Origin: a virus
Direction: 5' to 3' (one strand)
IMG/VR virus record: IMGVR_UViG_3300025597_000036
DNA length: 31,588 bases
A program made the translations under genes and the position numbers. The notes under the pieces were generated by a model that saw only the letters and a list, made by a program, of their open reading frames with translations, had not been told where the DNA came from and ran no database searches. Shown here in pieces: positions 2,814 through 31,588 of the stretch; position 1 is the stretch's first letter; each line of letters begins with the position of its first letter.

Positions 2814-3137
2814 ATGGAAGAAACCTTTGTATGTGCAGTTTGTGGCCAGAAAGAACCCAAAGTAAGACTCACCAGGCTTGGAGACAAACTCTACTGCTCT
2901 GACCACCTTGAACAGGGTCAGCAGGATCTCGCCATCGCAGAACTGGCAAAGAAATTTCCAGACCAGAACACTCTAAATCTCTATCTTTTTGATCATGTTG
3001 AACGACTTCTCACCAACAGTAGAGATCAAACTAAATACCTGAAATCGATCAAATCGATTCTCACCTTCTTCGTCGTGATCACCATTCTTGGTATCATCGT
3101 TTCTCTTCTTGAGTCATGCGCAGGATCCTTATATTAA
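2814..3137 (+). CDS. Zn-ribbon-like, C-terminally membrane-anchored protein
   Basis: Strong SD (AGGAGGGAAAATG). N-terminal CAVCGQ...YCSDH motif. C-terminal hydrophobic helix ILTFFVVITILGIIVSLL. Confidence 0.65.
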   Translation: MEETFVCAVCGQKEPKVRLTRLGDKLYCSDHLEQGQQDLAIAELAKKFPDQNTLNLYLFDHVERLLTNSRDQTKYLKSIKSILTFFVVITILGIIVSLLESCAGSLY

Positions 3138-4132
3138 AAATCAAATCAACCTTTGAGCGCATGCTCTCTGCGCTCCACCTCACCGCATTCCACCCCGCGC
3201 TGGTCGCCCTGATCCTCGCCACACTCCTCATGGTCCCGGTTTGCATGATCATCGCAGTCGTCAGCGGAGCGCGGGTTCTTACCTCGAGCACTGGTGTACC
3301 AGCTCCGGTGCTCGAATCAACGGCCGTGTCCATCTCTGTTTCTACCGAAACACCCTTGCCAACACTCACACCATCATCCATTCCGACCAAAATCTACACC
3401 AACACACCCACGCTCACTTTCACTCCAACAAAAACATTTACTCCCACACTAACCTTCACCCCATCCGCGACACCTACTATCACCCTGCCGGCTGCTCAGG
3501 GTGCCAACTGTGTACCAGATGAAAACGAGCGCGTTGTAGCCCGCGTGGTAAGCGTTACTGACGGTGATACCATCGTCGTGGATATCGGCGGTACCCAGTA
3601 CAAACTGCGTTACATAGGCATCGATGCCCCCGAATCAAGCGCTACAGGTGGAAAACAATCCACCGATTACAACCGCCAGCTCGTGGAAGGAAAAACAGTC
3701 ACCCTGGTCAAAGATCACTCCGAAACTGACCGTTACGACCGATTGCTGAGGTACGTTTTCGTAGGTGACACCTTTGTGAATTACGAAATGGTGCGTGCCG
3801 GCTTTGCCACATCAGGATCATGGCCACCAGACACCGCCTGTGACCAGGTGTTTGCAACTGCAGAACAATCAGCCCGACTGAATCAGCTTGGCTTATGGGT
3901 ACCAACGATCACCCCTGTGCTTTACATTCCCCCAGCTGCCATATCTACCAGCTCAGGCATTATCTCAGGAAGCGGATCGAATTGCGATCCATCCTACCCT
4001 GATGTATGCATTCCACGATACCCGCCTGATCTCGATTGCAGTCAGATCCCATACCGCCGTTTCCGCGTCATTCCGCCAGATCCCCATTCATTTGACCGTG
4101 ATGGTGACGGCATCGGTTGTGAAGGTGGATAA
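3116..4132 (+). CDS. Membrane-anchored extracellular thermonuclease (SNase) with C-terminal Excalibur Ca-binding domain
   Basis: N-terminal TM helix ALVALILATLLMVPVCMIIAVV, then a Thr/Pro linker. SNase signature: VTDGDTIVVD...LRYIGIDAPE...DRYDRLLRYVF...NYEMVRAGFA. Excalibur signature: NCDPSYPDVC...FDRDGDGIGCE. The start is uncertain (ATG 3116 or 3161). Confidence 0.88.
   Translation: MRRILILKIKSTFERMLSALHLTAFHPALVALILATLLMVPVCMIIAVVSGARVLTSSTGVPAPVLESTAVSISVSTETPLPTLTPSSIPTKIYTNTPTLTFTPTKTFTPTLTFTPSATPTITLPAAQGANCVPDENERVVARVVSVTDGDTIVVDIGGTQYKLRYIGIDAPESSATGGKQSTDYNRQLVEGKTVTLVKDHSETDRYDRLLRYVFVGDTFVNYEMVRAGFATSGSWPPDTACDQVFATAEQSARLNQLGLWVPTITPVLYIPPAAISTSSGIISGSGSNCDPSYPDVCIPRYPPDLDCSQIPYRRFRVIPPDPHSFDRDGDGIGCEGG
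3404..3475 (+). repeat. In-frame 18-nt tandem repeats encoding TPTLTF/TPTKTF/TPTLTF/TPSATP
   Basis: Read directly from the codons at 3404-3475 of the nuclease linker. Confidence 0.8.
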
Positions 4133-4133
4133 A

Positions 4134-5786
4134 ATGAATAACTCACAAATCACCTTTCCCCCTGGCTCTTCCGTTGTCGCCTACCTTCGCGATTCAGGCG
4201 GTGATGAGCAAGATCTTTCCGTTGCACAGCAACAAAATGTCGTAGAAAAATGGTGCACCGAACACAATATCACACTGTCACGGGTATTTTCAGACGTTGC
4301 TACTCCAGGCTCTTCCACGATTGGACGTTCTGCATTCAAACAAATGATCTCTCACTTTCATAATGTAAATTGTGCTGACAAGGGCGTGATCATCTGGAAG
4401 TTCTCCCGCTTCTCACGCGATATCGACGATGCCCAGTTCTATCGCGCAGATCTGCGCCGGCGCGGTTATATCGTATATTCCATTCAGGATAACATTCCAG
4501 ATACCACAGACGGCCGAATCTACGAGGCCCTCCTGGATTGGATGAACAACAAGTTCCTCGAGGATCTGTCGGTCGACGTGAAGCGTGGCCTGCACCACAT
4601 CGTCCGTGAATATGGAGCTGTACCAGGTACCCCGCCGAGAGGTTTCAAACGTGAAATTACGACAATCGGCATTCGGCGCGATGGATCACCTCATAAAGTC
4701 TCCCGCTGGGTCCCTGATCCTGAATGGTGGAATATTTGCCGGCGTGCCTGGGAGCTACGCTCAACCGGCGTTCCTATCAGACAAATCCACAAGGAACTAC
4801 ACATATTCGGCTCAATGCAGTCCTACACCACATTTTTCACCAACCGTATTTATCTTGGAGAGCTGCATTACGGAGAAATCACCATTCCAGATTATACCGA
4901 TCCAATGATTACAAAAGAGGAGTGGGATGCTGTTCAATTCCTCAACAGGAAAAATTCAGTGGAGTATGATCCCATGAAACGAAATCAAAACCCTCACCAC
5001 CCCAGGAGGATTTCAAGTTCCTTCCTGCTCAGCGGGTTGATTTACTGTGTCCGCTGTGGTAGTCTGCTGAATGGAGAAGTGCTGCGATTCAAAAACGGAC
5101 AATATCTAATGTACTATCACTGTGGAAATGCGCACCGAAACCTGGACTGCAACGCCAGGCGCATTCCAAAAGCCGCGATCGAAAAAGTTGTTATTGACCG
5201 TCTGAGAGAATACATCCTTGATCCAGCTTTGATTGCCGAGCGCGATCGAGAATATGCCATAGCGCATTCTGGAGAACGCGACAAAATCCACGAGGAACAA
5301 AAAAAAGTAAAATACGAGATCTCAGAATTACAGCGCAAAATGGATAACATCTCCCGCCAGATCGCTGATGACCCTTCCCCTTCGCGTACCTTAATGACCC
5401 TAATAAAAGAACTTGAGCAACAAGAACAAAAGAAAATCGATGAACTCGAACGACTGAGATCAATCGAAAACAGAGAAACTGTGTTTATTGGATCGCCAGC
5501 AAATTATGCCAGATTGTCAGAAAAATTTACAACAGAACTTGTCTCAGGCGATCCTGAGCGTATTAAATTAATCCTGCGAGGATTGATCGATCGAATATCA
5601 GCTGAACGTGATGGTGACTACATCAGAGGAATGATTTACTTCTTCAACCCTGAATTAGGCGAAGATAACTCCACGTCCTCAGATGAATTATATATGTCTA
5701 TGAATCAGAGCCACCGAAGGGGCTCTTCATATACACATATTAATGTTTACAATGTCGATTTTTGCACCACCCTCCCCCACAAATAA
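4134..5786 (+). CDS. int: Large serine recombinase (integrase)
   Basis: SD AAGGTGG precedes ATG 4134. Resolvase-type N-domain VVAYLRDSGGDEQDLSVAQQ...FSRFSRD. Recombinase domain plus Zn-ribbon (CVRCGS...YYHCGNAHRNLDC). C-terminal coiled coil. Confidence 0.9.
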   Translation: MNNSQITFPPGSSVVAYLRDSGGDEQDLSVAQQQNVVEKWCTEHNITLSRVFSDVATPGSSTIGRSAFKQMISHFHNVNCADKGVIIWKFSRFSRDIDDAQFYRADLRRRGYIVYSIQDNIPDTTDGRIYEALLDWMNNKFLEDLSVDVKRGLHHIVREYGAVPGTPPRGFKREITTIGIRRDGSPHKVSRWVPDPEWWNICRRAWELRSTGVPIRQIHKELHIFGSMQSYTTFFTNRIYLGELHYGEITIPDYTDPMITKEEWDAVQFLNRKNSVEYDPMKRNQNPHHPRRISSSFLLSGLIYCVRCGSLLNGEVLRFKNGQYLMYYHCGNAHRNLDCNARRIPKAAIEKVVIDRLREYILDPALIAERDREYAIAHSGERDKIHEEQKKVKYEISELQRKMDNISRQIADDPSPSRTLMTLIKELEQQEQKKIDELERLRSIENRETVFIGSPANYARLSEKFTTELVSGDPERIKLILRGLIDRISAERDGDYIRGMIYFFNPELGEDNSTSSDELYMSMNQSHRRGSSYTHINVYNVDFCTTLPHK

Positions 5787-5808: not shown

Positions 5809-6087
5809 TTACTTACCCCTCCATGCCGTTACCTTGTTACCGCTATGCGTTCTCCTTTCAACGCGTTCCAGGGTCCCTGCTTGCTCCATCTCAATTAATT
5901 TCTTTCGCGCCGTTTGTGGAGAAACCCCCAGCCTTTTTGCCAGAGCAACAGCTGTCAATTCCTTTCTCTCATCCAGGTACGGTGGAAGGTCATCCACCAT
6001 CAGACTCAATAATTCTTCTAATCCAAAATTCAAATCCGGACAATCGCCGGCTTTGGCATTTGATACAACATTCTCTCTGTTCGCCAT
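5809..6087 (-). CDS. Small winged-helix DNA-binding protein (regulator or RDF candidate)
   Basis: Strong SD (GGAGGATAAAACATG) at ATG 6087. HTH segment LTAVALAKRLGVSPQTARKKLIEMEQAG. The gene overlaps the upstream gene by 58 nt. Confidence 0.6.
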   Translation of the reverse strand: MANRENVVSNAKAGDCPDLNFGLEELLSLMVDDLPPYLDERKELTAVALAKRLGVSPQTARKKLIEMEQAGTLERVERRTHSGNKVTAWRGK

Positions 6088-6856: not shown

Positions 6857-7930
6857 CTACTCCAGGTACGTCACTTCATTCCCGTTCACCACTTCCTTCT
6901 CACAGCACCATTGCCGCCACCCAATTTGCACCCACGTGTAGCGCCCACTTACCACCCGTTGTAACACATGCACTACTTCCCCCTTGCTGAGCTTTTCGCT
7001 GTAAACGACTCCAGATAACACCCCGCTGATCAGATTTGGCGCTCCCTTACTCAACCTTACACGGAGCCCATCAACTTTTACTGTTTTCTTCTCAACTCTC
7101 ACCATATTTTCCTTCTCATGCACTTCATCATCATGAAAATCTTCTGGATTCACGACCACTACCGGCGTTTCCTCAATTGGAGTTGTCGCTTTCTCTCCAA
7201 AAAACGCCAGCAATTCCGCTTCAGTTTTACACCACACATTGATATCCACTTTTGCTTCCTCAAACCCCATCGCGCGTCCGTCAGGCACCTGGTCCCCGTT
7301 GATATCGCCAATGCTGTTCACCTGAATCATCACCAGGTCATTCCACCCGGCTTTTAAAACCACACCGCGCACAAAGTCTTCGCTCACCGGATTATAATTC
7401 GCAGCCCATAACGGCCTCCACCGGCGGTATTCCCCAGGGCGTTCCAGCCACCCTGTTGGCCAATATTCACCAGTTGCCCGACCATTGGCATCGTCAATCA
7501 CCTTCATCATATTATCTGCAATGGTCATCGCTGTTGGCCACACCGATTCAATTTTTGCGCAACCCGGTGCAGTTTCCTCATCTAAAAAAACTGGCATCGG
7601 GTGCACCTTCACGATCTCTGCAACTGCGTTACCCTGCAGGATCCCCCACTGCGAAGACGTGAGCTTCAAATACGAGTGCGACAGGTAATTCATGTACGCA
7701 AACTGCCCGAAAAGCATCCCTGTTTTGTAAGTTTCTTCCATGAAATACCAGAACAACCGATCAATTCGTGGCTTGCCATTCGCCACATACCCGTCCAGGC
7801 TGCGCGCAATCACAAACCTACAGCCAGAGTCTTTGAGTAACTTTAAATCTGGCATTTTGGGCGTATCTGCATAATCCTGCCAATGGCTCACATCAACACC
7901 CCAGATTTTATTATTAAGATTAATGATCAT
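6857..7930 (-). CDS. Endolysin: GH25 muramidase with C-terminal SH3-like cell-wall-binding region
   Basis: N-terminus IWGVDVSHWQ is typical of GH25. The C-terminal roughly 80 aa (KVDGLRVR...YTWVQIGWRQW) looks SH3b-like. No signal peptide is apparent. Confidence 0.82.
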   Translation of the reverse strand: MIINLNNKIWGVDVSHWQDYADTPKMPDLKLLKDSGCRFVIARSLDGYVANGKPRIDRLFWYFMEETYKTGMLFGQFAYMNYLSHSYLKLTSSQWGILQGNAVAEIVKVHPMPVFLDEETAPGCAKIESVWPTAMTIADNMMKVIDDANGRATGEYWPTGWLERPGEYRRWRPLWAANYNPVSEDFVRGVVLKAGWNDLVMIQVNSIGDINGDQVPDGRAMGFEEAKVDINVWCKTEAELLAFFGEKATTPIEETPVVVVNPEDFHDDEVHEKENMVRVEKKTVKVDGLRVRLSKGAPNLISGVLSGVVYSEKLSKGEVVHVLQRVVSGRYTWVQIGWRQWCCEKEVVNGNEVTYLE

Positions 7931-9170: not shown

Positions 9171-9721
9171 TACTTCACCTCCACATTGTATTCAAACGAC
9201 AGATCATGCAGACCAGCGCTGTTGTCATACGCCTGCAAAAAATGGCTGAACAGCGTCCCGCTGTCTGCAACCGCGCTCGCTGCCCCGCCAAACACCCCGG
9301 CTTCCTGAAGGTAAAAAGAACAGTTGGCAGCCGTAAAGAAAACACTCAAAGTAAGAGTGAGTCCAGTTCTGGTCTTTAGCGTGACCTCTTTCCTGGCAAC
9401 CTCGGTTTGCAGTTTAACATCCGTCAATGCCGGCGCGGTCGTTCCAGTCCCGATCGCGTAATACGTCAATCCTGTGGCCACTGCTCCGATCATCAAATCC
9501 CCCACCAGTTGCTTCCCGATCGTCACCACCAGGTTATTCACTGTGTTTTCATGCACACAGTACCCGTCTCTGATCGCCTGCTTCACCGCCTCATCCAGCG
9601 CCATACCTCGCTTCAGCAGCTCTCCAATCACACCTCTCTGAAACGCCCGCAAGGTAGATCGCCCTGTAAAACCTAACGTTTCATCCATATTTCGCAAATC
9701 CATATCTACACCCATCCCCAT
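9170..9721 (-). CDS. Tail module protein (hypothetical)
   Basis: ATG 9721 lies 8 nt after AGGAGA. An alternative start is ATG 9688 (ATGGATGA overlap with the upstream stop). Confidence 0.55.
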   Translation of the reverse strand: MGMGVDMDLRNMDETLGFTGRSTLRAFQRGVIGELLKRGMALDEAVKQAIRDGYCVHENTVNNLVVTIGKQLVGDLMIGAVATGLTYYAIGTGTTAPALTDVKLQTEVARKEVTLKTRTGLTLTLSVFFTAANCSFYLQEAGVFGGAASAVADSGTLFSHFLQAYDNSAGLHDLSFEYNVEVK

Positions 9722-11681
9722 ACCGGTATTCTCCTGTGTGCGCACTAAACGCATTCAGAACCTCATCCATTGTGACGATCTCTGTAACACTCATGATCTC
9801 ATCCAGCACCTCGTTTGGATTCCACTCGAGTTCTGGATTTAACGCCCGCTGAATCGACAAAAACAACCTCACCAGGTTTGCATCCGCCACACCTGCCTCA
9901 ACAATTGTGTTCACAAATCCACCGGGTCCGATCGTAGTGGTCACCCGTTGAATCATGTAATTACCGCTGATTCCCCTTGCCGAGTGCTCAATTATCTGCA
10001 TCTGACCGGCTCGCAGCCCTGGTTCAATCGTGGAATACGAAATTGCCGGCTTGGCCATGGCATTTTGCGCCAGTTCGTATTGAGCCCGCAACTTCGCAGT
10101 TGTCTGATCTACGATCTCCGTGGCATTGATCACGGTCTTGAACCACTTCCCATAATGCTCATAACTCGCCTGGTTCCTGCAGACCGTCCTGATCGGCACT
10201 TCCTTGCGCCCGTCCACCTCAATCGCGTTATCCAGTCCAGGCCAGAACGTCTCCTGTTGCAGCTGTGCCGTGCTCTCGAAGTAAAGTACCTCGTCCCGCG
10301 CATTGAGCGTTTCCTGATTGCCAGTCTTCACATTCATCGTCGTCCACACCGGCATATTCACCCGCGTGCTGGTGGAATTGTGCGCCGTACCCGTCCATGC
10401 GTACCCCGTTCCCATGCTTCCATCGCAATAGGCACTTGGCCAGGTCAATTTCTCTGCCTGCACCGCATCGTAATAACACGCGGTCGTTGAATCATTCGCA
10501 TTGTTGTACAGTTCCACCCTCACGGTCAATGCCGCGCCGGTATCGTTGTAATACCCCGCTGTTACCAGCTCCCATGTGCTGGTTTTCCGGTTGTAACACT
10601 CCCCCAGATTCACAGCGCCTGCCACATTCCAGATCACCACTGCAGCCGTTCCCACAACTGGCGACCACACCCTGGCCTGCACCGTCAACGTTTCACCCGG
10701 GTTTAATGTCAGGCTTTGCCCCTGAAGAACAGCTACCGCTGTTCCAGCTGTGATCTTCAAACTCGCTGCCCCGGCATAAAATTTCGTTACATCTCTGGCC
10801 CATACCGCCCCCGTACCGGCCTGGTATTGCGTCCATCCATCCGTAATATTGACCTCAAACGAAGGATTCACCACCAGATTGGTGGTCGGTCCTCCGTCAT
10901 TCCGCCTCACAACAATCGCAGTCTGCCCATCTGGAGGCTTCATCCGGTTAAACAGATTTACCAGCACATTCCTGCCATTCGCACTCAGTACCTCTGTTAT
11001 ATCGCCTGATAAATATTTTCCTCCCACGATCTCCACCAGATTGAATACTCCAGCTCCGTTTGTTGAACTCCTCAGATTTTGTACCGTGATTGCTCCGGCT
11101 TCATTAGGATCATCACTGATATTGAATGGCGCAGAATACTCCTCGCTGCCAAAATAATGCAGTTTTTTCTCCGGATCTACATACCAGTTTCCCCCGCTTA
11201 GAGTACACAACTCATCCAGAATAACCCTTATGCTTTTCCGGTTGTATCGCACTCTTGGCAATAACTTCAATTCCGAAACATTGGTTACCGCATCGAACTC
11301 ACTCAAACTTGAATCTGTGAAAATGTCCGCAATGATCTCCTGGTCAGTCCGATCCTCATATTCCCGGGTCACAAACACCTTGTCAAAATAAATTCCATAA
11401 TCCGTGCACCCCAGCACGTAATCGTTACCCATTCCATCCGCGTTTGCACTCTTATCAACCGTTTGCACATACCCGCCAAACAGCTTCGTACTGCCGTTCG
11501 AGAGAACGATCTCCTGCCAGTCCGATGGATTAATCGCATCAGCGTTGAACAGCGTCAATGTCAACGTGTCCAATTCTGCGTTGATCGCGTTGATAATCTG
11601 AGGCTGCGACCGATTCAAATCACAGTAATTGGTCACATCCACCCCGTTCAACGTAATCTTCAGATCAACTTCATCTACCAT
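9681..11681 (-). CDS. Distal tail / baseplate hub protein with internal CBM4/9-like carbohydrate-binding module
   Basis: First gene after the tape measure gene. The N-terminal domain resembles Dit/gpD-type tail proteins (REYEDRTDQEIIADIF...GGNWYVDPEKKLHYF). The central NPSFE..DGW module covers aa ~268-412 (nt ~10446-10880). Confidence 0.7.
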   Translation of the reverse strand: MVDEVDLKITLNGVDVTNYCDLNRSQPQIINAINAELDTLTLTLFNADAINPSDWQEIVLSNGSTKLFGGYVQTVDKSANADGMGNDYVLGCTDYGIYFDKVFVTREYEDRTDQEIIADIFTDSSLSEFDAVTNVSELKLLPRVRYNRKSIRVILDELCTLSGGNWYVDPEKKLHYFGSEEYSAPFNISDDPNEAGAITVQNLRSSTNGAGVFNLVEIVGGKYLSGDITEVLSANGRNVLVNLFNRMKPPDGQTAIVVRRNDGGPTTNLVVNPSFEVNITDGWTQYQAGTGAVWARDVTKFYAGAASLKITAGTAVAVLQGQSLTLNPGETLTVQARVWSPVVGTAAVVIWNVAGAVNLGECYNRKTSTWELVTAGYYNDTGAALTVRVELYNNANDSTTACYYDAVQAEKLTWPSAYCDGSMGTGYAWTGTAHNSTSTRVNMPVWTTMNVKTGNQETLNARDEVLYFESTAQLQQETFWPGLDNAIEVDGRKEVPIRTVCRNQASYEHYGKWFKTVINATEIVDQTTAKLRAQYELAQNAMAKPAISYSTIEPGLRAGQMQIIEHSARGISGNYMIQRVTTTIGPGGFVNTIVEAGVADANLVRLFLSIQRALNPELEWNPNEVLDEIMSVTEIVTMDEVLNAFSAHTGEYRYGDGCRYGFAKYG

Positions 11682-11706
11682 CCCCTACCTCTCCCACTCT
11701 TGGCCA

Positions 11707-11805
11707 CTTTGCGTTGATTTCCGCTCTTCTTTGCGTCCTCTGCGGCTTTGCGAGAATATAAAACAAAGGTTTTCTTTGCGTACTTTGCGTCTTTGCGAGA
11801 TAATA
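11707..11805 (-). promoter_or_regulatory. Two copies of the triple-CGCAAAG element plus one lone heptad
   Basis: Plus-strand ctttgcg starts at 11707. It recurs at 11729 / 11738 (ctctgcg variant) / 11746, and at 11774 / 11783 / 11791. Each triple has 9- then 8-nt spacing and is followed by aga. Confidence 0.6.
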
Positions 11806-11815
11806 AAAAATTCAT

Positions 11816-13399
11816 CTACCTGATTCCCTGCAGGGTCAACCGTTGCATGATCTTATTCGCCACCAGATCAGGATCCCCCGCTCCATTCACCTGAATCGTA
11901 ATCGTATTTCCGCCTGACCCCTGCCCCGCCGGCGTCACCCGCACCCGCTCCCCGCTCTCCACCCATAACGGACCAAACGAATCATTCGGATAGCCCGGCG
12001 GAACCACAAAATCAACTCCATTTGCAAATTCCATCCGCTGCTTATTCTTCGGTAAACTGACCATGCTCCCGCCGGTCGTGGGGGTTCCGTGCGTCACATA
12101 TTTTGTGGTGAACGTCAGGGTATGAGAGGTCGGAATCTTATTAATGGATTCCGTAATAAGTCCATTTGCCTCCATAATTCGCAGCGCCTGATCGTAATAC
12201 GACTGTGCTCGCTTGGCGTTCTCTGCACTGATCAGCCCGGTGTCCACCTGGTACTGCAGCAGAAAATCCATCTCCGCCTGAGAAAGTTCCCCGTCCGCCA
12301 GCAGCATCTTCTGAAATATATCGACCATCCATTGATCGACCATTTTCTGCTGTTCCACCTTCAGGTCTTCTACGGCCTGTGTGCGTTCTTCAATCCCCTT
12401 CGTGTCCAGCGGATTCTCATTGATATATTCCGCAAGTTCTGATTCAGCCTTAAGTAATTTTTCCTCGCTTGATTGCATCTTCGACGCAAGGGAGATCACG
12501 TTCGAATATTGATCTGAAAGCGTGATCAATGCTTCGTTGTATTGACCGGTTGCATCCTTGCTGCTGTAAAACTCCTCGTTGAGTCTGTCTACTTCAGCTT
12601 GAAGTTCCGCAACCTTGTCTTTTGCTTTTTTTGATCCCAATGCAGCCGAAACAGACCAGCTGCTGATCTGATCTTCAAGGTCTTCGATTTTCAAAAGGTG
12701 TTCTTCTACTGCATCCGTACCCGTTGTGAATTGTCTAATCAGCAAATCAAGTTCTGGCACCACTTCCCTGGCTACTGTGTACTTGAACCCCTGCCACGCA
12801 TCCTGCAGGTTATCTACCGACTGCTTATACTGGATCATCTGGCGCATCGACTCTTCAGTAACAATCATCGAATCGTCAATCGCATCCATCGCCGATTGGA
12901 TACCTTCCGCCCCTTTTTCCATGAGCTTACCCATCTCAGCTCCTGATCGGCCAAAGGTATCCATTAAAAACTTTGACCGCTCGTTCCCTTCCTCAAGAGC
13001 CAGATACTGATCAGATAATTTTTTCAATCCTTCGATGGAAACATCGATTCCCTTGCGCGTCGCAGCCTGTAAACTACTCGCCAGAGTCGATTCTGAAATG
13101 AAAAGATCGTCGGTCGCCTGAATAAGCCGTGAGGTTTCCTCAGTGGAGATCCCCAGGAGACGTGAATAATTATCGACCTGTGTCCCGTACTCAACCCATT
13201 CATTGACCGATGATGTGATGAAATTCCCCAGCGCTTTCGCTGCCCCGGTTACCGCCCCGATCGCTGTGACAGACCCCAGGCTAAAACCGGTGAGCTCCTT
13301 GAAACTGGCGCTCATCTTCTTTAGCCCGCTGACCGCTTCCTTATCTCCCCCGCCCTTTTTTATCGTATTGATAATAATATTAAGGATCGAATCACTCAT
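11816..13399 (-). CDS. Tail tape measure protein
   Basis: Sits directly after the G/GT chaperone pair. The sequence is long, helical and coiled-coil rich with an N-terminal Gly/Ala hydrophobic segment. ATG 13399 (MSDSILN) is preferred over the listed TTG 13414. Confidence 0.82.
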   Translation of the reverse strand: MSDSILNIIINTIKKGGGDKEAVSGLKKMSASFKELTGFSLGSVTAIGAVTGAAKALGNFITSSVNEWVEYGTQVDNYSRLLGISTEETSRLIQATDDLFISESTLASSLQAATRKGIDVSIEGLKKLSDQYLALEEGNERSKFLMDTFGRSGAEMGKLMEKGAEGIQSAMDAIDDSMIVTEESMRQMIQYKQSVDNLQDAWQGFKYTVAREVVPELDLLIRQFTTGTDAVEEHLLKIEDLEDQISSWSVSAALGSKKAKDKVAELQAEVDRLNEEFYSSKDATGQYNEALITLSDQYSNVISLASKMQSSEEKLLKAESELAEYINENPLDTKGIEERTQAVEDLKVEQQKMVDQWMVDIFQKMLLADGELSQAEMDFLLQYQVDTGLISAENAKRAQSYYDQALRIMEANGLITESINKIPTSHTLTFTTKYVTHGTPTTGGSMVSLPKNKQRMEFANGVDFVVPPGYPNDSFGPLWVESGERVRVTPAGQGSGGNTITIQVNGAGDPDLVANKIMQRLTLQGIR

Positions 13400-13536
13400 T
13401 TCGCCTGCCTGCAATAATTACCAATAAAAGTGTTTCCAAAACTACATATCCTTGCTGGAACGCTCTACCAATAAAGCTCTTTTCGTGTGCTGTCATCTCT
13501 TTCATTTGTTTCGTGTTAAGCTTTTGTCATTAAAAC

Positions 13537-13580
13537 CTTTGCGTTCTTAGCGCCTCGCGATCTCTGCGCCCCTGAGCGCT
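13537..13580 (-). promoter_or_regulatory. Degenerate copy of the triple-heptad element
   Basis: ctttgcg (13537), cttagcg (13546), cctcgcg (13553), then atct. It lies directly after the GT stop codon. Confidence 0.4.
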
Positions 13581-14257
13581 TTAGTGCGAATGGGGTTGCG
13601 AGAGATAACTTCTATACCCTTGTTTCTTCAGCCACGCACCGGCCATGTTTTCCTGTGCCTTCACCATCTCAACCATCTCCGGCAGTTCATCTGCCACGCC
13701 ATTGATCACGTCCCACCATTCATCCGGGATATCATCCACATCCCACGGCATCAAAGCCGTTCCCAGAAGCCGGTTCACTTTCTGCGCCCTGAACAACTTG
13801 CCCAGTTGGGCATGTTGAGTCCGCCCCGTTCGGGCAATTTCCAGCAGAGCGGACTCTAGACTTTTTTTCTGCCATACCGGTGCAGGTTGATCTGCGCGGC
13901 GATCGCCTCTTTTAGCCATGGCCAGAAGTTAGGATCAGTCTCCCTCACCTGCTCTACCATCACTTTCAGTTCCTCCTGGCTCATCCTCGATTCTTCGCTT
14001 CCCTGGCTCAGCAGCACGGAATACAGCCTCAACTGCTCATTTACCAGGTCAGTAAACTCACTGACCGCTGCCTTTTCTTCATCCGCGTTCAAATCAGTCC
14101 GCCTGATGATCTCCAGCATCCTCTTTGACGTGGCATTGATCTCTTCCAGCAGTGCGTTCGGAGCATTCACCCACACCTCCAGCGTCGCCTCCCCGAACTC
14201 CGGCGCGTACTCATCCAGTCGAATCTTTTTGATGATCTTTGGCACTTCAATTTTCAT
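13581..14257 (-). CDS. Tail assembly chaperone G-T fusion via -1 programmed frameshift
   Basis: A -1 slip on A AAA AAA joins the G frame to the 13581..13919 frame, reading ...GRKK/KSLESALLEIARTG... This matches the listed ORF text QKKSLESALLEIARTG. Confidence 0.72.
13856..14257 (-). CDS. Tail assembly chaperone (G-like, zero-frame product)
   Basis: Sits between the major tail and tape measure genes. The product is acidic and 133 aa long. ATG 14257 is preferred over the listed TTG 14263. The ORF ends ...RYGRKKV-TAG. Confidence 0.8.
   Translation of the reverse strand: MKIEVPKIIKKIRLDEYAPEFGEATLEVWVNAPNALLEEINATSKRMLEIIRRTDLNADEEKAAVSEFTDLVNEQLRLYSVLLSQGSEESRMSQEELKVMVEQVRETDPNFWPWLKEAIAAQINLHRYGRKKV
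13862..13868 (-). promoter_or_regulatory. Slippery heptanucleotide A_AAA_AAA
   Basis: Seven T on the plus strand (13862-13868). In the G frame this reads AGA AAA AAA GTC TAG. Confidence 0.75.
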
Positions 14258-14269
14258 GATCAATCACCA

Positions 14270-15265
14270 TTAAATAGAAGCGACATTCGTAATGACATTC
14301 ACTTCAAGCATCTTATCGCCTGTCGGGTCATAAATACCCTCGAACGCAACCGTGGTCAGAGAAGTCTCCTTCTCCTTGTTTGCCCCTGGCAGTGGCTCCA
14401 TCACCACCCCGCTGAACGCAATGTCCAGCGCGTGGTTCTCACCGCTGCCAATAGCCGGACCTGAACAGTGAATATTTACCACTTTCATCGTCCCGATCGC
14501 GTCATGCAGCGCGATCGCTTCAGATCCATTGACCAGCGTTAATGTCACCAGAATGGCGATCTTTCCTTCGCCAACCTTATTGAAAACTAGAGAATTACCG
14601 TTGAACTCCGGGTAAGCTCCATTGGTGATTTCGATATCCACCCCGCGCAAAATCCCCGTTTTCTCCGTTGTTCCAACAGTCGCCCATGAATCGTTGATAT
14701 ATAACTGAGTCAGCAGTCCGTTGATCTCGTTCACCACCGGCAAAGCGATCGCCGTCGTGAAATTCGTCTTCGTGTTCTGCCTGGCAAAATAGTCATACTC
14801 GATCTTTGCCACCGCATCGCTGCCGTCCTGCGGGATGGTGATGGAAATCTTCATCCGCTCACCGGTCATATATTCCTGCTCAAACGCCTGAACCGAATCT
14901 CCAAATTCAATCGTCGCTGAATCCAACGCGTTAGAGTTCACCAGATCCGGTGTAAATTCCCACAGATAATCATCCTGACCGGTCGTCTGCTCTGCGGGTG
15001 TTACCCCGCCCTTGAGCAGCATCGAGAACAGCAGCGGCAATGCCTGGAAATACGCCCTGTCAAAAACCAGCGTATTGTTCACCAGCTTCCCGCTGGTCAT
15101 CACAGCCCGGTAACCATTGACCTTTTTCCCGATATCATCCTGCGGGATGGTTGGTACACGATCCAACACATACTTCAGCGTCGCCAACAGCCTGGTATCC
15201 GCCGCCACCGCCGTTCCGTGCGCCGCCGGACTTTCAACACCAATTTGAACCTGTTCTAATGCCAT
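14270..15265 (-). CDS. Major tail (tube) protein
   Basis: Strong SD (GGTGAGGTGAAAAATG). The gene sits immediately upstream of the frameshifted chaperone pair. The call is positional. Confidence 0.6.
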   Translation of the reverse strand: MALEQVQIGVESPAAHGTAVAADTRLLATLKYVLDRVPTIPQDDIGKKVNGYRAVMTSGKLVNNTLVFDRAYFQALPLLFSMLLKGGVTPAEQTTGQDDYLWEFTPDLVNSNALDSATIEFGDSVQAFEQEYMTGERMKISITIPQDGSDAVAKIEYDYFARQNTKTNFTTAIALPVVNEINGLLTQLYINDSWATVGTTEKTGILRGVDIEITNGAYPEFNGNSLVFNKVGEGKIAILVTLTLVNGSEAIALHDAIGTMKVVNIHCSGPAIGSGENHALDIAFSGVVMEPLPGANKEKETSLTTVAFEGIYDPTGDKMLEVNVITNVASI

Positions 15266-15338
15266 TTTTCACCTCACCAAACTTTTTTATCAATAAAGTT
15301 CTTTACCAAATAAGGCTAAGCCTTTTTATTAAAAATTT

Positions 15339-15367
15339 CTTTGCGTTCTTTGCGCCTTTGCGAGAGA
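15339..15367 (-). promoter_or_regulatory. Triple-CGCAAAG element
   Basis: Plus-strand ctttgcg at 15339, 15348 and 15356, then agaga. It directly abuts the stop codon at 15368-15370. A small hairpin aaggc-tta-gcctt follows downstream on the transcript. Confidence 0.6.
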
Positions 15368-15814
15368 TCATGCGCTCACCGTGTACTTCCCGCTCTGACT
15401 CTCCTCCACCGTCCAATCCACCTCGATGACGAAATGCTCGTCCTCGTTGCCCCATTTATCCATCCCCATCTGCATGGACGTAATCCTGAAATCCGTCACC
15501 AGCCCCCCAAGCGTCAAATGCCCTGCCGCGGCCTTCACGATCTCGTTGATGAACTTCATCACAAAGCCCATCTGTGATCTCACCAACCCGGATGTAATGT
15601 GAAAATGTGTTCTCCCGTGAAATACCGCAAAGCATACACCTCCCAGACTGTAGGAATGATTGACATCCATCACAAACGAAATCGCCGATGGAAAAACGCT
15701 CACGCTTTCCGGCACCCTGTCGAAGGTGTAACTCAACACCCGCTTGTTTTCAACGCTCACCTCCCCCCACACATCGGTCAGCGCCTTGCCCCAGCTCGCA
15801 ATCCCGTATGCCAT
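15368..15814 (-). CDS. Neck/tail terminator-position protein (hypothetical)
   Basis: ATG 15814 overlaps the upstream TGA (TGATG). The gene sits directly upstream of the major tail gene. Confidence 0.55.
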   Translation of the reverse strand: MAYGIASWGKALTDVWGEVSVENKRVLSYTFDRVPESVSVFPSAISFVMDVNHSYSLGGVCFAVFHGRTHFHITSGLVRSQMGFVMKFINEIVKAAAGHLTLGGLVTDFRITSMQMGMDKWGNEDEHFVIEVDWTVEESQSGKYTVSA

Positions 15815-16377
15815 CACTTCACCCTCATTCCTGCAGTGATCTTATCCAGCGCCGTTTTCAGATAACCCAGAACGACACTTTTTTTCTGTTCCATAACCGT
15901 CCTCACAACAGGCGTGCCCTTGATGCCCTTCTGCTTGATACTTCTCGCCAGCGCATACGCCGCCTGCATCGATTCCTGCTCTGTTTTTGTTCCAAACTTC
16001 GCTTCTACCCAGGGGATCAAATCATGCACCCAGGGCTGCCTGTTTTTACGATTTTCATAATAAGAACCATATTGCATGAACCTGAACACATGCGCCCTTG
16101 CGTTCCTGCCCTTATCCGATGGGCCGGTGATACCGGTTACTGACCCAATCCCATTCACCTTCAACCTTGTCCCGATTGATTGAGCCGTAGCTCCCGTGAA
16201 TTGTTTCACCCTCGGTACCAGTGCCCCCTTCATCTCCTTGTTGCCCTTGCGCACAGCCTGCACCAGGTACTTGTTCATCTCCTCAGGCATCTTCTCGATC
16301 AATGCAAGCTGCCGCGCCAGATCGCTGTCACCACTGATCTGAGCCTCAAAGTCAGCCTGAGTCAATTTCGATGGCAT
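15814..16377 (-). CDS. HK97 gp10-like neck/tail completion protein
   Basis: Position, size, and the pattern ...VKQFTGATAQSIG... that resembles gp10-family proteins. The similarity is weak. Confidence 0.45.
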   Translation of the reverse strand: MPSKLTQADFEAQISGDSDLARQLALIEKMPEEMNKYLVQAVRKGNKEMKGALVPRVKQFTGATAQSIGTRLKVNGIGSVTGITGPSDKGRNARAHVFRFMQYGSYYENRKNRQPWVHDLIPWVEAKFGTKTEQESMQAAYALARSIKQKGIKGTPVVRTVMEQKKSVVLGYLKTALDKITAGMRVK

Positions 16378-16380
16378 TCC

Positions 16381-17397
16381 TTAATCTCCCGTGTTGAATT
16401 GATCAAGAACCGTTGAGATCTGATTTGGCGGAAATTCGCTGTAATATCTGCCAGATCCCATTTCACTGTTACCGGTAACACCAGTGAATCCGCTCTCCGC
16501 CTTCATCCGCATCAGCGCGGCGATCTGCCTGCATAAATAATTCACCGTCTCAGGCACAACCATCTGGTAAACCGCCTTCGCAGTGTGCGCTGACGCCGTT
16601 GTACCGTTCACACCTCGCACCACCGTGAACGTCCTGTAAACTCCAATTGCTGAATCATCCGCGTGCGCTGCTTGGGTTGTCCCGTTCCATCCGCGCTTTA
16701 CCGCCAGCTTGTTCCCGCCGATCTTCTGGATAAACAAATCCTCAGTCCCGATCTGGATCACCTCGCCCGCGTGAAACTCCGCGCCGTTATCCACAGTGAT
16801 TTCATCATCCCCATCCGCAATCGCCACGTTCACCTTCGAAGTCGCCGCCGTTGCCGCCGGGCTTCCCGGTCCTCCCGACCCCGCGCTGACGTACTCCTGC
16901 TCATTTTCGATCCGCACCACCATACCCGGGCTGATCACACTTCCGTCCGCGACCACCAGCGTGGTCTCCGTTGCCGTTGCCTGAGTTACCGTCACCCCCA
17001 GGCTTACCGAATCATCATACTTACCCCACTTGCCCGTGATCTCAATATCATCCTCATCCCCCCACAGACAATCTGTTTCAATGGAGATATATGGACCATT
17101 CGCCCACATCCGGTTCAGCGGCTTCAAACGCAAATCGGCTGCAGAGATCGTCACACCATCGTTTACCAGTGTGGTCAGCTCTAAAAGTGGAGGAACAAAC
17201 AACGGCTCTCCTCGATATTTCCAGTTCACCCCGAATTTGCGCATTTCCGTCACCGGAATGAACTCCCCGCCCTTTTGCCGGATGATTTCACTCGCCGCCT
17301 TGATTCGGTCCATCAGATCTGCCTGATCCTCAAACCCGCGCATCTTGAGATCATCCATCACTTCCTTGGCCGTGCAGTAAACCTGAGCAAGTGGCAT
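16381..17397 (-). CDS. Head-tail connector/adaptor with inserted repeat domain
   Basis: ATG 17397 follows GAGGGA. The listed 17454 start would run through a GC hairpin. The N- and C-terminal ends look adaptor-like. The middle carries tandem RG-x-NGT-x-A-x-H motifs. Confidence 0.55.
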   Translation of the reverse strand: MPLAQVYCTAKEVMDDLKMRGFEDQADLMDRIKAASEIIRQKGGEFIPVTEMRKFGVNWKYRGEPLFVPPLLELTTLVNDGVTISAADLRLKPLNRMWANGPYISIETDCLWGDEDDIEITGKWGKYDDSVSLGVTVTQATATETTLVVADGSVISPGMVVRIENEQEYVSAGSGGPGSPAATAATSKVNVAIADGDDEITVDNGAEFHAGEVIQIGTEDLFIQKIGGNKLAVKRGWNGTTQAAHADDSAIGVYRTFTVVRGVNGTTASAHTAKAVYQMVVPETVNYLCRQIAALMRMKAESGFTGVTGNSEMGSGRYYSEFPPNQISTVLDQFNTGD

Positions 17398-17441
17398 TTC
17401 GATTCCCTCAAAAATAAGAAAAATAATTCCCGATTCCCATG

Positions 17442-17467
17442 TGGGGGCGCTCAATTGAACGCCCCCA
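17442..17467 (-). terminator. GC-rich hairpin after the capsid gene (attenuator/terminator candidate)
   Basis: tgggggcg-N10-cgccccca has an 8-bp stem and lies 22 nt after the capsid gene stop. A U-rich stretch occurs about 15-35 nt further on, not adjacent to the stem. Confidence 0.4.
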
Positions 17468-17488: not shown

Positions 17489-18652
17489 CTATCCAACCAG
17501 AATTGCCATGGCATCCGGCTTCACGGCCTTCACACCCCAGGCCAGACCAACCTCGTAAGCCACCCGGCGGTGCTGACGATACATCGCAACCTGGAAGGTG
17601 ATACCGGTCTGCGGGTCAGTGATATAAGCTACATCATCCGCAGCGTCGCCGCCTTCCGGCATGGCCGGTGCGCGCATCAGCAAATGGATTGCCGAACGGC
17701 TGAACGCCAGGTTCGCTGTGTAGCTGTTACCAATGGCAATGGGATCATTGTTCACCCATGCGGTCTTGAGGCCGGTTCCAGCCAGCACAATATCTCCGTC
17801 GCCGTCTCCAGCAAAACCGGTTTTCACCAGATATTTATTGGTGTCACGACCGGTCTTGGTGTTGGTGATAATATCGCCCGCTTTGATAGCTCCAGCTCCA
17901 GTATCCACATGAATCGTGGTGCTTCCGGCCGCATAACCTGCAGTCAGATCGACTGCATAGGCACTGCCACCACCCTTGGTGTGGGTTTTCACCTGAGCGC
18001 TTTCGCGCATATCGAATCCAAGCAGCGGCAATAAGACCCCGCGCCGCAGCAGTGAATCATTCCCAGCATCTCCCGCGTTGGTCAGCTGGGTCAATGAACG
18101 CAAATTCACGCCTGCTGTGGTGTCAATCACGCACTGCAGATCGCTCTGCGGTGCCCCGGCGTCCTTCAACAGCTTGCCCAGTTGAGCCAGGCACGCCAGC
18201 TTATTGGTGCTGTCGAACGGGGTGGATCCCGCTGTGCCATAGAACCACGAAGCATAAACATACAACCCGGCCAGATCGGCTTCAACCTCATTAATCAATG
18301 TGCGCATCGATTGCGCAAACTGATCCTCAAGAGTCCTGCCGTAAAGCCCGCCCAGTCCCTTCTGTTCTTCACCGGTCCAGAAAAACGACGTGCTGCGGAA
18401 CTTGGTAATCGTGATCGTTCCCGGAGAAACTGTCTGCTCATTAGGGTCAGGCCCCGTTGCCGACGCTTCAATATCGCCCGCGGTCTGTGCAGCCACGATC
18501 GGGTAACTGAGATTCTGATTCTTCGCCACCTGCTCACCTGAAGCATCAAGGGTGACCGCAGGAATAAACCCGGTCAGCTCCCTCATCACCACATCTATGG
18601 ATTTATAGAGGGTAGGAATAAGACCAGTCAACGTATTTGCTTTTTCAACCAT
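17489..18652 (-). CDS. Major capsid protein (P22 coat-like, HK97 fold)
   Basis: Strong SD (GGAGGTATTCAAATG). The gene follows the protease and scaffold genes. The C-terminus ...VAYEVGLAWGVKAVKPDAMAILVG resembles the P22 gp5 C-terminus ...[20 protein letters not shown]. Confidence 0.8.
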   Translation of the reverse strand: MVEKANTLTGLIPTLYKSIDVVMRELTGFIPAVTLDASGEQVAKNQNLSYPIVAAQTAGDIEASATGPDPNEQTVSPGTITITKFRSTSFFWTGEEQKGLGGLYGRTLEDQFAQSMRTLINEVEADLAGLYVYASWFYGTAGSTPFDSTNKLACLAQLGKLLKDAGAPQSDLQCVIDTTAGVNLRSLTQLTNAGDAGNDSLLRRGVLLPLLGFDMRESAQVKTHTKGGGSAYAVDLTAGYAAGSTTIHVDTGAGAIKAGDIITNTKTGRDTNKYLVKTGFAGDGDGDIVLAGTGLKTAWVNNDPIAIGNSYTANLAFSRSAIHLLMRAPAMPEGGDAADDVAYITDPQTGITFQVAMYRQHRRVAYEVGLAWGVKAVKPDAMAILVG

Positions 18653-25324: not shown

Positions 25325-25543
25325 TCACCCCACCTTCCACGCATCCACCAACCCCAGCTGAACAGCGCGCGCCACTGCAGTCATCATCGTCTCAGCCTCC
25401 AGTTTGCGCTGCACGCTGTACCTCAAATTCCTCACCCGGCGCGCACTCACTCCCAGTCGGTAGGCTATCGCGCGCGTGGTCAAACCCTCGACCACTAGCT
25501 CTAACACCTGCTGCTCACGCGCCGAAAGCGACACCTGATCCAT
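25325..25543 (-). CDS. LuxR/GerE-type HTH protein (72 aa)
   Basis: LSAREQQVLELVVEGLTTRAIAYRLGVSARRVRNLRYSVQRKL. Confidence 0.8.
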   Translation of the reverse strand: MDQVSLSAREQQVLELVVEGLTTRAIAYRLGVSARRVRNLRYSVQRKLEAETMMTAVARAVQLGLVDAWKVG

Positions 25544-31378: not shown

Positions 31379-31588
31379 CTATTGAATAACCGCGTCTTTC
31401 AACGGGTCTTTGATTTCAGCAGGAAGGTACTCAAACAAATCGTTGTCGATCTGCGCTGAAGGCACCTCCAGAAATGAAACAAATTCCGGCCGCTCTTCTA
31501 ACATTGCTCGCTCAAGTTTGATTTTGTTGAAGGTCAACAGTTCCGGGTGGCGCTCGATAGCCCAGGCTACCGCCTCGTCGTGGCGGTA
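31379..31588 (-). CDS. Wrap-around CDS, 3' part (same 177-aa protein; 31462-31588 duplicates 1-127)
   Basis: The frame from 451 continues ...PEFVSFLEVPSAQIDNDLFEYLPAEIKDPLKDAVIQ and ends at TAG (31381-31379). The distance from 31462 to 31381 is 81 nt, a multiple of 3. Confidence 0.6.
   Translation of the reverse strand, partial: YRHDEAVAWAIERHPELLTFNKIKLERAMLEERPEFVSFLEVPSAQIDNDLFEYLPAEIKDPLKDAVIQ
31462..31588. repeat. Terminal direct repeat copy 2 (circular-closure overlap)
   Basis: Identical to 1-127. The unique genome length is therefore 31,461 bp. Confidence 0.95.

Follow-up and report, generated by a model that had tools for sequence, protein, structure and literature searches.

Triple-heptad arms in the tail-gene gaps of a phage genome share their sequence with the terminal repeats of GxxExxY cassettes

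The stoperators of cluster A mycobacteriophages are single 13-bp sites that occur in 20-35 copies genome-wide, are cluster-specific and are bound by the phage's immunity repressor. RNA regulators of the TRAP and HutP type combine a short motif, repeated at regular short spacing, with an oligomeric RNA-binding protein, while homing endonuclease genes lack conserved inverted repeats at their ends and leave no large populations of gene-less repeats behind. Here we examine a short element in the virus record IMGVR_UViG_3300025597_000036 from IMG/VR, a stretch of 31,588 nucleotides that we call the window. The copies of this element, which we call arms, consist of three direct heptads of the CGCAAAG type and lie in intergenic gaps of the phage tail module; arms of the same family bound small cassettes that carry a GxxExxY gene. 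The closest described counterparts are repetitive extragenic palindromic (REP) sequences and REPINs, which together with REP-associated tyrosine transposases (RAYTs, of the Y1 HUH type) form "REPtrons" and for which a GTAG or CGTC tag is defining (Di Nocera et al. 2013, PMC3733652). By analogy, the arm system appears to work most like REP/REPIN-RAYT, minus three of its defining features: the palindrome, the tag and the Y1 HUH enzyme. Our favoured reading, to which we give a probability of about 0.6, is that the phage has the window arms as passengers, namely as orphan arms of such a REP/RAYT-like system of nuclease and repeats.

The heptad CTTTGCG was found 12 times in the window against 4.9 expected, a count reached in 0 of 100 shuffles. 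Ten of the 12 copies lie in three gaps of the tail module, all on the plus strand; read in the sense of the minus-strand genes they are CGCAAAG. When up to 3 mismatches were allowed, the full pattern CGCAAAG-N-CGCAAAG-NN-CGCAAAG matched at 15339-15362, 11774-11797 and 11729-11752 (the last with the middle heptad CGCAGAG) and in none of 100 shuffles. A preliminary description of this DNA had reported a non-random intergenic element in the tail module, oriented with transcription, and these counts bear it out: the minus-strand gene block has eight gaps that measure 20 nt or more, arms are confined to the three in the tail module, and no antisense-oriented arm is present in the window. The lone heptad that it listed at 11707 is also there, and with units of 7 nt and spacers of 1-2 nt the element is, as stated, no CRISPR array. 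An isolated heptad given near 22053 has no exact counterpart at that place; a single antisense heptad within a gene lies at 15626-15632. Of the four copies originally listed three are clean, while the fourth, at 13537-13580, is for the most part a different repeat of ~50 nt and is heptad-like only at 13537-13552. The arms and heptads of the window are the following.

15336..15367, minus strand: arm A, TCTCT + CGCAAAG-G-CGCAAAG-AA-CGCAAAG + AAA
11770..11802, minus strand: arm C1, TATCT + CGCAAAG-A-CGCAAAG-TA-CGCAAAG + AAAA
11726..11757, minus strand: arm C2, ATTCT + CGCAAAG-C-CGCAGAG-GA-CGCAAAG + AAG
11707..11713, minus strand: lone CGCAAAG heptad, with arm C2 on one side and the ribosome-binding region of the 666-aa tail gene on the other
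13537..13552, minus strand: two-heptad remnant CGCTAAG-AA-CGCAAAG in gap B

All three arms have TCT or TCTCT before and AAA or AAG after the heptads, of which eight in nine are CGCAAAG. Arm A abuts the TGA stop codon (15368-15370) of a 149-aa gene and stands 70 nt upstream of the major tail ATG (15265), while arm C1 starts 13 nt past the tape-measure stop codon (11816-11818).

Arms of this kind extend far beyond the window. The exact 21-base pattern with 8/9 spacing was found at 48 IMG/VR loci, and among species-representative genomes at least 120 contigs contain it, spread over more than a dozen phyla. Carriers include Acidobacteriota, Chloroflexota, Nitrospirota, Planctomycetota, Desulfobacterota, Bacteroidota, Beta- and Gammaproteobacteria and Verrucomicrobiota, together with Omnitrophota, Cyanobacteria (the isolate Calothrix HK-06), Spirochaetia, one Gracilibacteria metagenome-assembled genome (MAG) and one Methanoperedens MAG. 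The proposal of a stoperator-like system specific to the phage or its tail genes does not survive this distribution, with the arm in at least 120 cellular genomes and more than 100 unrelated viral contigs and only patchily among relatives of the phage. Nor does the constant spacing (9 then 8 nt on the plus strand, 8/9 in the sense direction), since several spacings occur across the viral family.

Spacing 8/8, 81 viral loci: flanks TCTCA, TCTCT or TTTCA as in the family; 83 of 94 arms have exactly three heptads
Spacing 8/9, 48 viral loci: the form found in the window
Spacing 9/9, 45 viral loci: mixed with in-frame coding repeats of giant viruses
Spacing 9/8, 2 viral loci: almost absent

The coding repeats with 9/9 spacing were seen in giant-virus and jumbo contigs (L178, L182, L185, L187, L190 and L201), for example as repeated CGCAAAGTC encoding a run of R-K-x tripeptides; they are a separate phenomenon that shares the heptad by chance.

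A position table of 205 distinct copies defines the arm unit as T-Y-Y-C/A-N, three heptads and R-A-A, with a mild A-rich stretch upstream; conservation is confined to positions -5 to +27 and the spacer bases are free. Sister arms of equal layout are built from CGCAGAG, CACAGAG, CGCCAAG, CGCGAAG or CACAAAG heptads. One simple possibility is that such triplets are local simple repeats, produced by replication slippage in purine-rich spacers and unrelated to elements elsewhere. Two viral contigs (L239 and L245) do contain long arrays of 8-nt units with a heptad gradient from CACAAAG through CGCAAAG and TACAAAG to TACAAAA, which is typical of slippage and unequal exchange, and the number of heptads varies from 1 to 4 in relatives of the phage. 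Yet flank, heptad, the count of three and the polar spacing are constant across hundreds of unrelated loci, the full pattern exceeds chance in the window and the arms are tied to one protein family, as described below, which makes slippage alone scarcely credible as an explanation.

Some arms are solo, some form convergent inverted pairs that enclose a variable spacer, and some form arrays. According to crude gene calls, on which all our intergenic, pairing and orientation figures rest, ~60% of arms are intergenic as compared with ~12% of the sequence, and in cellular genomes about half of the intergenic arms (51 of 94) face a convergent inverted partner no more than 220 nt away, with a pair spacer of 13-100 nt. 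Pair interiors are related within one genome and not between phyla, and nested copies were seen at two loci (L013 and L069). No general preference for one orientation relative to flanking genes was found in cellular genomes or viral contigs. Among 86 pairs, flank positions -3 to -1 agree between the paired arms at 0.88-0.93 versus 0.44 after shuffling, while intra-arm spacer bases agree at 0.37-0.55 versus 0.29-0.41, no better than chance. Because the flanks co-vary between paired arms while the spacers do not, the constraint lies on the flank and heptad sequence rather than on a perfect duplex, and this points to a sequence-specific trans-acting factor.

The proteins encoded near arms suggest what this factor may be. 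We clustered 675 proteins whose genes lie no more than 1.5 kb from arms and obtained abundant housekeeping families plus one small family of 125-144 aa, which is TIGR04256 "GxxExxY" / PF13366 PDDEXK_3; it is the sole non-housekeeping family, and no linked transposase or regulator was present among these 675 neighbours. In ~2 Mb of arm-anchored DNA all five GxxExxY genes are located 5-47 nt from an arm. For a reciprocal test we used 80 metagenome loci selected solely for encoding a GxxExxY relative and sought arms no more than 150 nt from the gene. Of the 80 genes, 50 (62%) have such an arm with three or more heptads and 70 (88%) one with two or more; the rest of these loci, 253 kb, contains just 12 arms. 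In the commonest layout, arm→gene←arm (34/80), the forward arm ends 0-30 nt before the start codon and the reverse arm begins 0-30 nt past the stop codon, giving a cassette of 412-494 bp (~450 bp) with outer flanks complementary over 4-6 nt. Other layouts are ←gene→ (11) and ←gene← (8). The arms are thus the terminal inverted repeat of GxxExxY cassettes. At six of the ←gene→ loci (L337, L346, L347, L350, L352 and L362) the GxxExxY frame apparently continues into the downstream arm, and this read-through adds a basic C-terminal tail, for example ..GLEEEESRAKSQGRQE.

The sequence of the arm changes along with the clade of the protein. The identical heptad variant is present on both sides of 36 of 50 genes (shuffled mean 22.7, maximum 30). 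Within the close clade protein identity follows the heptad variant weakly (0.605 vs 0.583; 24 of 2000 permutations), and the clear signal comes from a divergent clade (L382, P0169, P0184, P0235 and P0239), which has the same layout with TTCC-CGC(A/T)GA(T/A) arms in three independent contexts including the isolate Emticicia aquatilis. Its arms read TTCC-CGCAGAT-AA-CGCAGAT-CAA-CGCAGAA, or contain CGCAAAA, CGCTGAA or CGCAGAC, and never CGCAAAG. In Emticicia aquatilis and related contigs (L390-L399) the cassette has a MoxR-type AAA ATPase gene on one side and a VWA_CoxE gene on the other; its arms directly adjoin the stop codon upstream, and GGGAGAA, the distal flank, lies ~8 nt before the next ATG, at Shine-Dalgarno distance.

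The GxxExxY protein (~125 aa) has an invariant D...E-x-K nuclease motif and a PD-(D/E)XK fold predicted at high confidence (predicted local distance difference test, pLDDT, 92.8). No close solved structure was found by sequence, and a fold search gave only generic PD-(D/E)XK matches above E = 1e-3. The family comprises at least 7,998 clusters at 90% identity, and its published phylogeny reports that it was transferred between divisions several times (PMC3424549). Many of the GxxExxY proteins, a large share, are encoded on contigs of 0.5-1.5 kb, which is consistent with a multi-copy cassette and its arms breaking short-read assemblies. In the papers open to our search we found no description of the arm repeat or of its association with GxxExxY / PF13366, and the link between this very large uncharacterised nuclease family and a conserved repeat is apparently undescribed. 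The preliminary description had suggested that a multimeric protein reads the tandem heptads. The conserved flank and heptads with free spacers fit such a protein; the best candidate partner of the arms is a cellular gene, that for GxxExxY, which is absent from the phage.

The likeness to REP/RAYT systems rests on several features. Arms are short (~30 nt), high-copy, mostly intergenic, often inverted doublets and spread over many phyla. A small enzyme gene is flanked by the inverted repeats (50-70 of 80 GxxExxY genes, 34 of them as arm→gene←arm), gene-less copies vastly outnumber those linked to a gene, and target-site duplications are lacking: none above shuffled controls flank 131 arm pairs or 27 cassettes. 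The differences are equally plain. The arm is made of three direct heptads and is not a palindrome, so that a single arm has no hairpin; its flank is T-Y-Y-C/A-N, without a GTAG or CGTC tag; and the linked enzyme belongs to the PD-(D/E)XK superfamily (PF13366 / TIGR04256) rather than to the tyrosine HUH transposases. Moreover, the GxxExxY gene is multi-copy and very diverse, while one arm sequence is common to several phyla. Free-standing homing endonuclease genes resemble the system in being compact small nuclease cassettes, putatively selfish, between conserved genes and even inside operons, as in the MoxR-VWA operon of Emticicia. The GxxExxY cassette, whose nuclease role is here predicted from sequence, differs from them in its conserved inverted arms and many gene-less copies.

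Nine relatives with the same gene order, whose major tail proteins are 58-66% identical to that of the window, allow the phage arms to be compared between genomes. Prophage copies stand on large contigs, that of L298 on one of 682 kb and that of P0003 on one of 430 kb. Arms are present in 4 of the 10 genomes (window and nine relatives), 7 arms in total, 7 sense and 0 antisense, as follows.

Window: gap A; gap C (two arms)
Relative L175: gap A, upstream of the major tail gene
Relative L174: gap B, before the tape measure gene
Relative L301: past the major tail gene; past the 669-aa tail gene

In relatives, where the preliminary description had proposed a motif search, homologous gaps of L175 and L174 do hold arms, but only four genomes carry them and positions vary. 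Gaps in the relatives (L170, L172, L174, L175 and L298-L301) contain at least five other small repeat families. These are GTAG-tagged palindromes GGGGC..GCCCCTAC, which match classic REPs as defined in PMC3733652, GATTGCTTCG..CTCGCAATGAC elements, GGAAGTCC elements, GTGAATCGTGATT heptads and purine-rich CACGAAA / ACGAAAA heptads with ~9-nt spacing. Three unrelated families counted in these phages gave 23 sense and 0 antisense copies (13/0, 6/0 and 4/0). Because all three are as strictly sense as the arm, the orientation lock belongs to all repeats in these operons and is not special to the heptad arm.

For insertion as the origin of a phage site there is direct evidence at gap C.

11670..11820, minus strand: gap-C insertion, delimited by a 10-nt direct repeat and by the relatives' junctions

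The 10-mer GGTAGATGAA occurs at 11811-11820 and 11670-11679, 141 nt start-to-start, falls at both gene boundaries of the gap and encloses arms C1 and C2 and the lone heptad; a comparably positioned direct repeat was obtained in 110 of 200,000 random genome segments. The junction is closed in 7 of 8 relatives, where the stop codon of the tape measure gene overlaps the start of the next gene (ATGA, GTGA or TAATG). The flanking proteins align to their very termini (...LQGIR* / MVDEVDLKITLNGVD in the window, ...LQGVGR* / METIDLQILLNGVD in L299), and the 141 extra nt of the window consist almost solely of the two arms and the lone heptad. Gap C thus arose by a lineage-specific 141-nt insertion between genes that overlap in relatives, a presence/absence polymorphism at an orthologous site, filled in the window and without any gap in 7 of 8 relatives. 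A different hairpin repeat is inserted at the same junction in L300. The insert is open in frame as a 46-codon open reading frame (ORF), MNFLLSRKDAKYAKKTFVLYSRKAAEDAKKSGNQRKVAKSGRGRGW*, at 11677-11815 on the minus strand, with an ATG directly past the tape-measure stop and a TAG that overlaps the start of the next gene, an arrangement that resembles translational coupling. This ORF is probably spurious because the T-free arms cannot yield stop codons.

Miniature inverted-repeat transposable elements (MITEs) and small insertion sequences share with the arm system the inverted terminal arms around a variable interior, the gene-carrying and gene-less versions, interiors related only within a genome, nested copies, and insertion at a gene junction, here that of the window. 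They differ in that the arm family lacks target-site duplications, the sole case being the 10-nt repeat at the composite gap-C insert, and that arms have free spacer bases between fixed heptads and are commonly solo. The only gene of the cassette encodes a 125-aa PD-(D/E)XK protein, which is not a recognised transposase.

The position of the phage arms raises the question of a function in the late transcript. Solo arms show no excess of RNA structure over shuffles (fold z = +0.5 and +0.8), and whole gaps are not unlike shuffles either (z = -0.5 to +0.6). A co-opted RNA element could be envisaged in which the sense arm, U-free, purine-rich and unstructured, acts just past the upstream stop codon and tunes the major tail, tape measure and distal tail genes; it could be a ribosome standby or re-initiation pad, an insulating spacer, or a platform for a host RNA-binding factor. 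This would agree with the uniform sense orientation of the seven phage-family arms, which start 0-18 nt past a stop codon, with the lack of structure in solo arms, and with heptads that stay intact despite ~37% protein divergence between carriers. Many phage contigs have an arm 5-40 nt upstream of a start codon. The forward arm of a cassette usually stops 0-30 nt short of the GxxExxY start, often with no other Shine-Dalgarno sequence, and the outer flank of the reverse arm (GGAGAA / GAGAGG) is at Shine-Dalgarno distance from downstream genes. Several results speak against such an element: arms in cellular genomes and viral contigs generally have no orientation preference relative to flanking genes, 6 of the 10 phages compared have no arms and 7 of 8 relatives have no gap at site C, no cognate RNA-binding protein is known, and the sense bias, common to three unrelated repeat families, need not reflect arm function. 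The arms also share with TRAP- and HutP-bound sites a motif repeated at regular short sense-strand spacing with free spacer bases, but the phage encodes no candidate RNA-binding protein, there is neither a terminator/antiterminator structure nor an Rfam family, and in other genomes arms are also antisense and in non-leader positions. On balance we regard an RNA function of the phage arms as rather unlikely.

We therefore return to the reading of the window arms as passengers. They are orphans in the sense that the window phage encodes no PDDEXK_3 gene and that complete cassettes are so rare in viral contigs (1 in 2.9 million in a pattern-based search), with gene-less arms far outnumbering gene-carrying cassettes. 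A host-encoded GxxExxY protein would recognise the flank and heptads and would copy or maintain the arms. In the phage, arms may be retained solely in the few gaps that are non-coding and solely in the sense direction, in which the T-free, purine-rich strand brings neither stop codons nor RNA structure; effects on the expression of tail genes, if any, would be secondary. In its wider form the proposal is that heptad arms and GxxExxY PD-(D/E)XK genes make up an undescribed cross-phylum nuclease-and-repeat system, a PD-(D/E)XK counterpart of REP-RAYT in which a small nuclease, specific for the sequence of the tripartite arm, would spread or maintain thousands of gene-less arms in bacterial chromosomes and their phages. 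We advance this wider form tentatively and with some doubt.

A number of observations weigh against this interpretation. Association and co-variation could reflect a co-inherited cassette whose arms serve expression or RNA processing. Classical transposition is unsupported because the 131 pairs and 27 cassettes lack target-site duplications, which makes the 10-nt repeat at gap C an atypical member of the family. A simple terminal-repeat model does not account for the 11 of 80 genes with opposite arm polarity, ←gene→. The phage arms are near-perfect and not decayed, all sense and within 18 nt past a stop codon, and homologous gaps keep arms in phages whose major tail proteins are only ~63% identical; such intact, stop-proximal arms would also fit selection for a phage function. 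With a single complete cassette among viral contigs, the data give little indication of how arms enter phages, and the sole hint of a Chloroflexota host is one Pelolinea-labelled homologue among the relatives.

The function of PF13366 / TIGR04256 is listed as unknown, and the link to the arms provides a first concrete hypothesis for the target of these proteins. If correct, it would extend the REP-RAYT paradigm of domesticated or selfish repeats to a second class of enzyme. Should the nuclease-and-repeat system prove true, the phage arms would be sites for a host nuclease on phage DNA or RNA; they would then not be inert passengers, and host and phage could meet there in conflict or exploitation. 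Several repeat families of host type have settled in the few gaps of a compact late operon, and all of them point the same way, so that apparent "regulatory motifs" in such gaps can be immigrants. For annotation, arms may explain many short contigs, and stop-free arms could yield spurious basic mini-ORFs, for example across gap C.

Positions 1-127 and 31462-31588 of the window are 100% identical over 127 nt; the window is therefore a complete phage genome of ~31.46 kb (~31,461 bp), circularly permuted or terminally redundant. No close DNA relative was found by blastn against 50,697 phage records. The minus-strand gene block extends from ~6.0 to 31.3 kb. Genes of the window to which we refer, and other recognised genes, are given below.

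17489-18652, minus strand: major head protein (PHROGs)
16381-17454, minus strand: head-tail adaptor (PHROGs)
15814-16377, minus strand: tail completion protein (PHROGs)
14270-15265, minus strand: major tail protein, 331 aa (synteny with relatives)
13856-14263 and 13581-13919, minus strand: tail-chaperone frameshift pair, overlapping ORFs (inferred from gene order)
11816-13414, minus strand: tape measure protein, probable ATG at 13399 (PHROGs)
9681-11681, minus strand: minor tail protein, the 666-aa tail gene (PHROGs)
3888-5786: large serine recombinase
3116-4132: SNase-type nuclease
2154-2609: Xre-like helix-turn-helix (HTH) protein
5809-6087: DeoR-like winged HTH protein
25325-25543: GerE/LuxR-type HTH protein, 72 aa

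The 72-aa GerE/LuxR-type HTH protein is similar to σ70 region 4 and its gene lies just upstream of the packaging and structural genes, which makes it a candidate late-gene regulator. It is also a candidate for the model raised in the preliminary description, in which a phage DNA-binding protein on the heptads would control tail-module transcription in a stoperator-like manner; half-sites of 7 bp are often read by members of its family. Several HTH proteins are encoded by the phage, this one beside the late genes, and the window arms resemble stoperators in being short, asymmetric, intergenic near stop and start codons and oriented with transcription. Against this, the phage has only 3-4 sites in two or three gaps, identical arms occur across phyla and in unrelated phages without a shared phage regulator, gap C is a recent insertion and most relatives lack arms. 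A spacing of 8-9 bp would also place successive heptads on different faces of B-DNA, and the consistent genetic partner of the arm is a cellular nuclease-like gene. With 3 tripartite sites in one module (11707-15367), shared with many cellular phyla and without a phage partner protein, the arms are not members of the stoperator class, from which copy number, lineage specificity and the phage-encoded partner all separate them. Control by a phage regulator is thus very improbable.

Other candidate identities were also considered. The shuffle-like folding scores rule out a structured RNA motif or an intrinsic terminator for solo arms, and Rfam gave no match for the window with permissive filters or for 15 loci with paired arms. 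BoxA/nut sites, Rho utilisation sites, Hfq or CsrA motifs, Chi-like sites, integron attC sites, σ54 promoters and rRNA complementarity are misfits with the sequence, the heptad variants or the cross-phylum spread. A promoter scan of the window found one weak σ70-like match, overlapping the start of the major tail gene; the arm itself cannot hold a σ70 promoter in the sense direction because its sense strand is T-free. Two hairpin-capable features lie outside the arms.

15312..15324, minus strand: small hairpin AAGGC-TTA-GCCTT, 14 nt downstream of arm A; weak and outside the conserved arm
13553..13606, minus strand: ~50-nt repeat in gap B, distinct from the arm and hairpin-capable

The gap-B repeat reads TCTCT-CGCAAC..TCGCA..GCGCTCAGGGGCGC..ATCGCGAGG or, in another notation, ATCTCT-CGCAAC..TCGCA..AAGCGCTCAGGGGCGCAGAGATCGCGAGG. 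The family consensus is TCTC-CGCAAC..(A/C)TCGCA..AAGCGCTCRGGKGCGCARARATCGCGAGG, of which the TCTC-CGCAA head is common to the heptad arm. Further copies were found in the homologous gap of L298 (~11840-11890) and in other gaps of L300 and L301.

L300, ~12250-12300 and ~7000-7050: ~50-nt repeat
L301, ~7110-7190: ~50-nt repeat

The chaperone frameshift ORF of the window (stop 13581-13583) extends 7 codons into this element and ends ..GYRSYL|SQPHSH*, whereas in the relatives it ends ..GYR(S/K)YL(K/R)(R/K)A* or ..GYRKGK*. Gap B, read by eye, also contains a 37-codon ORF, MKEMTAHEKSFIGRAFQQGYVVLETLLLVIIAGRRNE*, at 13392-13505 on the minus strand, with a hydrophobic C-terminal half and a stop codon that overlaps the probable tape-measure start (ATGAGTGA). 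Finally, a (C)TTTATTGG motif is found 10-40 nt upstream of start codons in the window (13430-13421, 13467-13460 and 15298-15290) and in gaps of the relatives. It usually directly precedes a GGTGA or GGAGG Shine-Dalgarno-like sequence and may be part of the translation initiation region.

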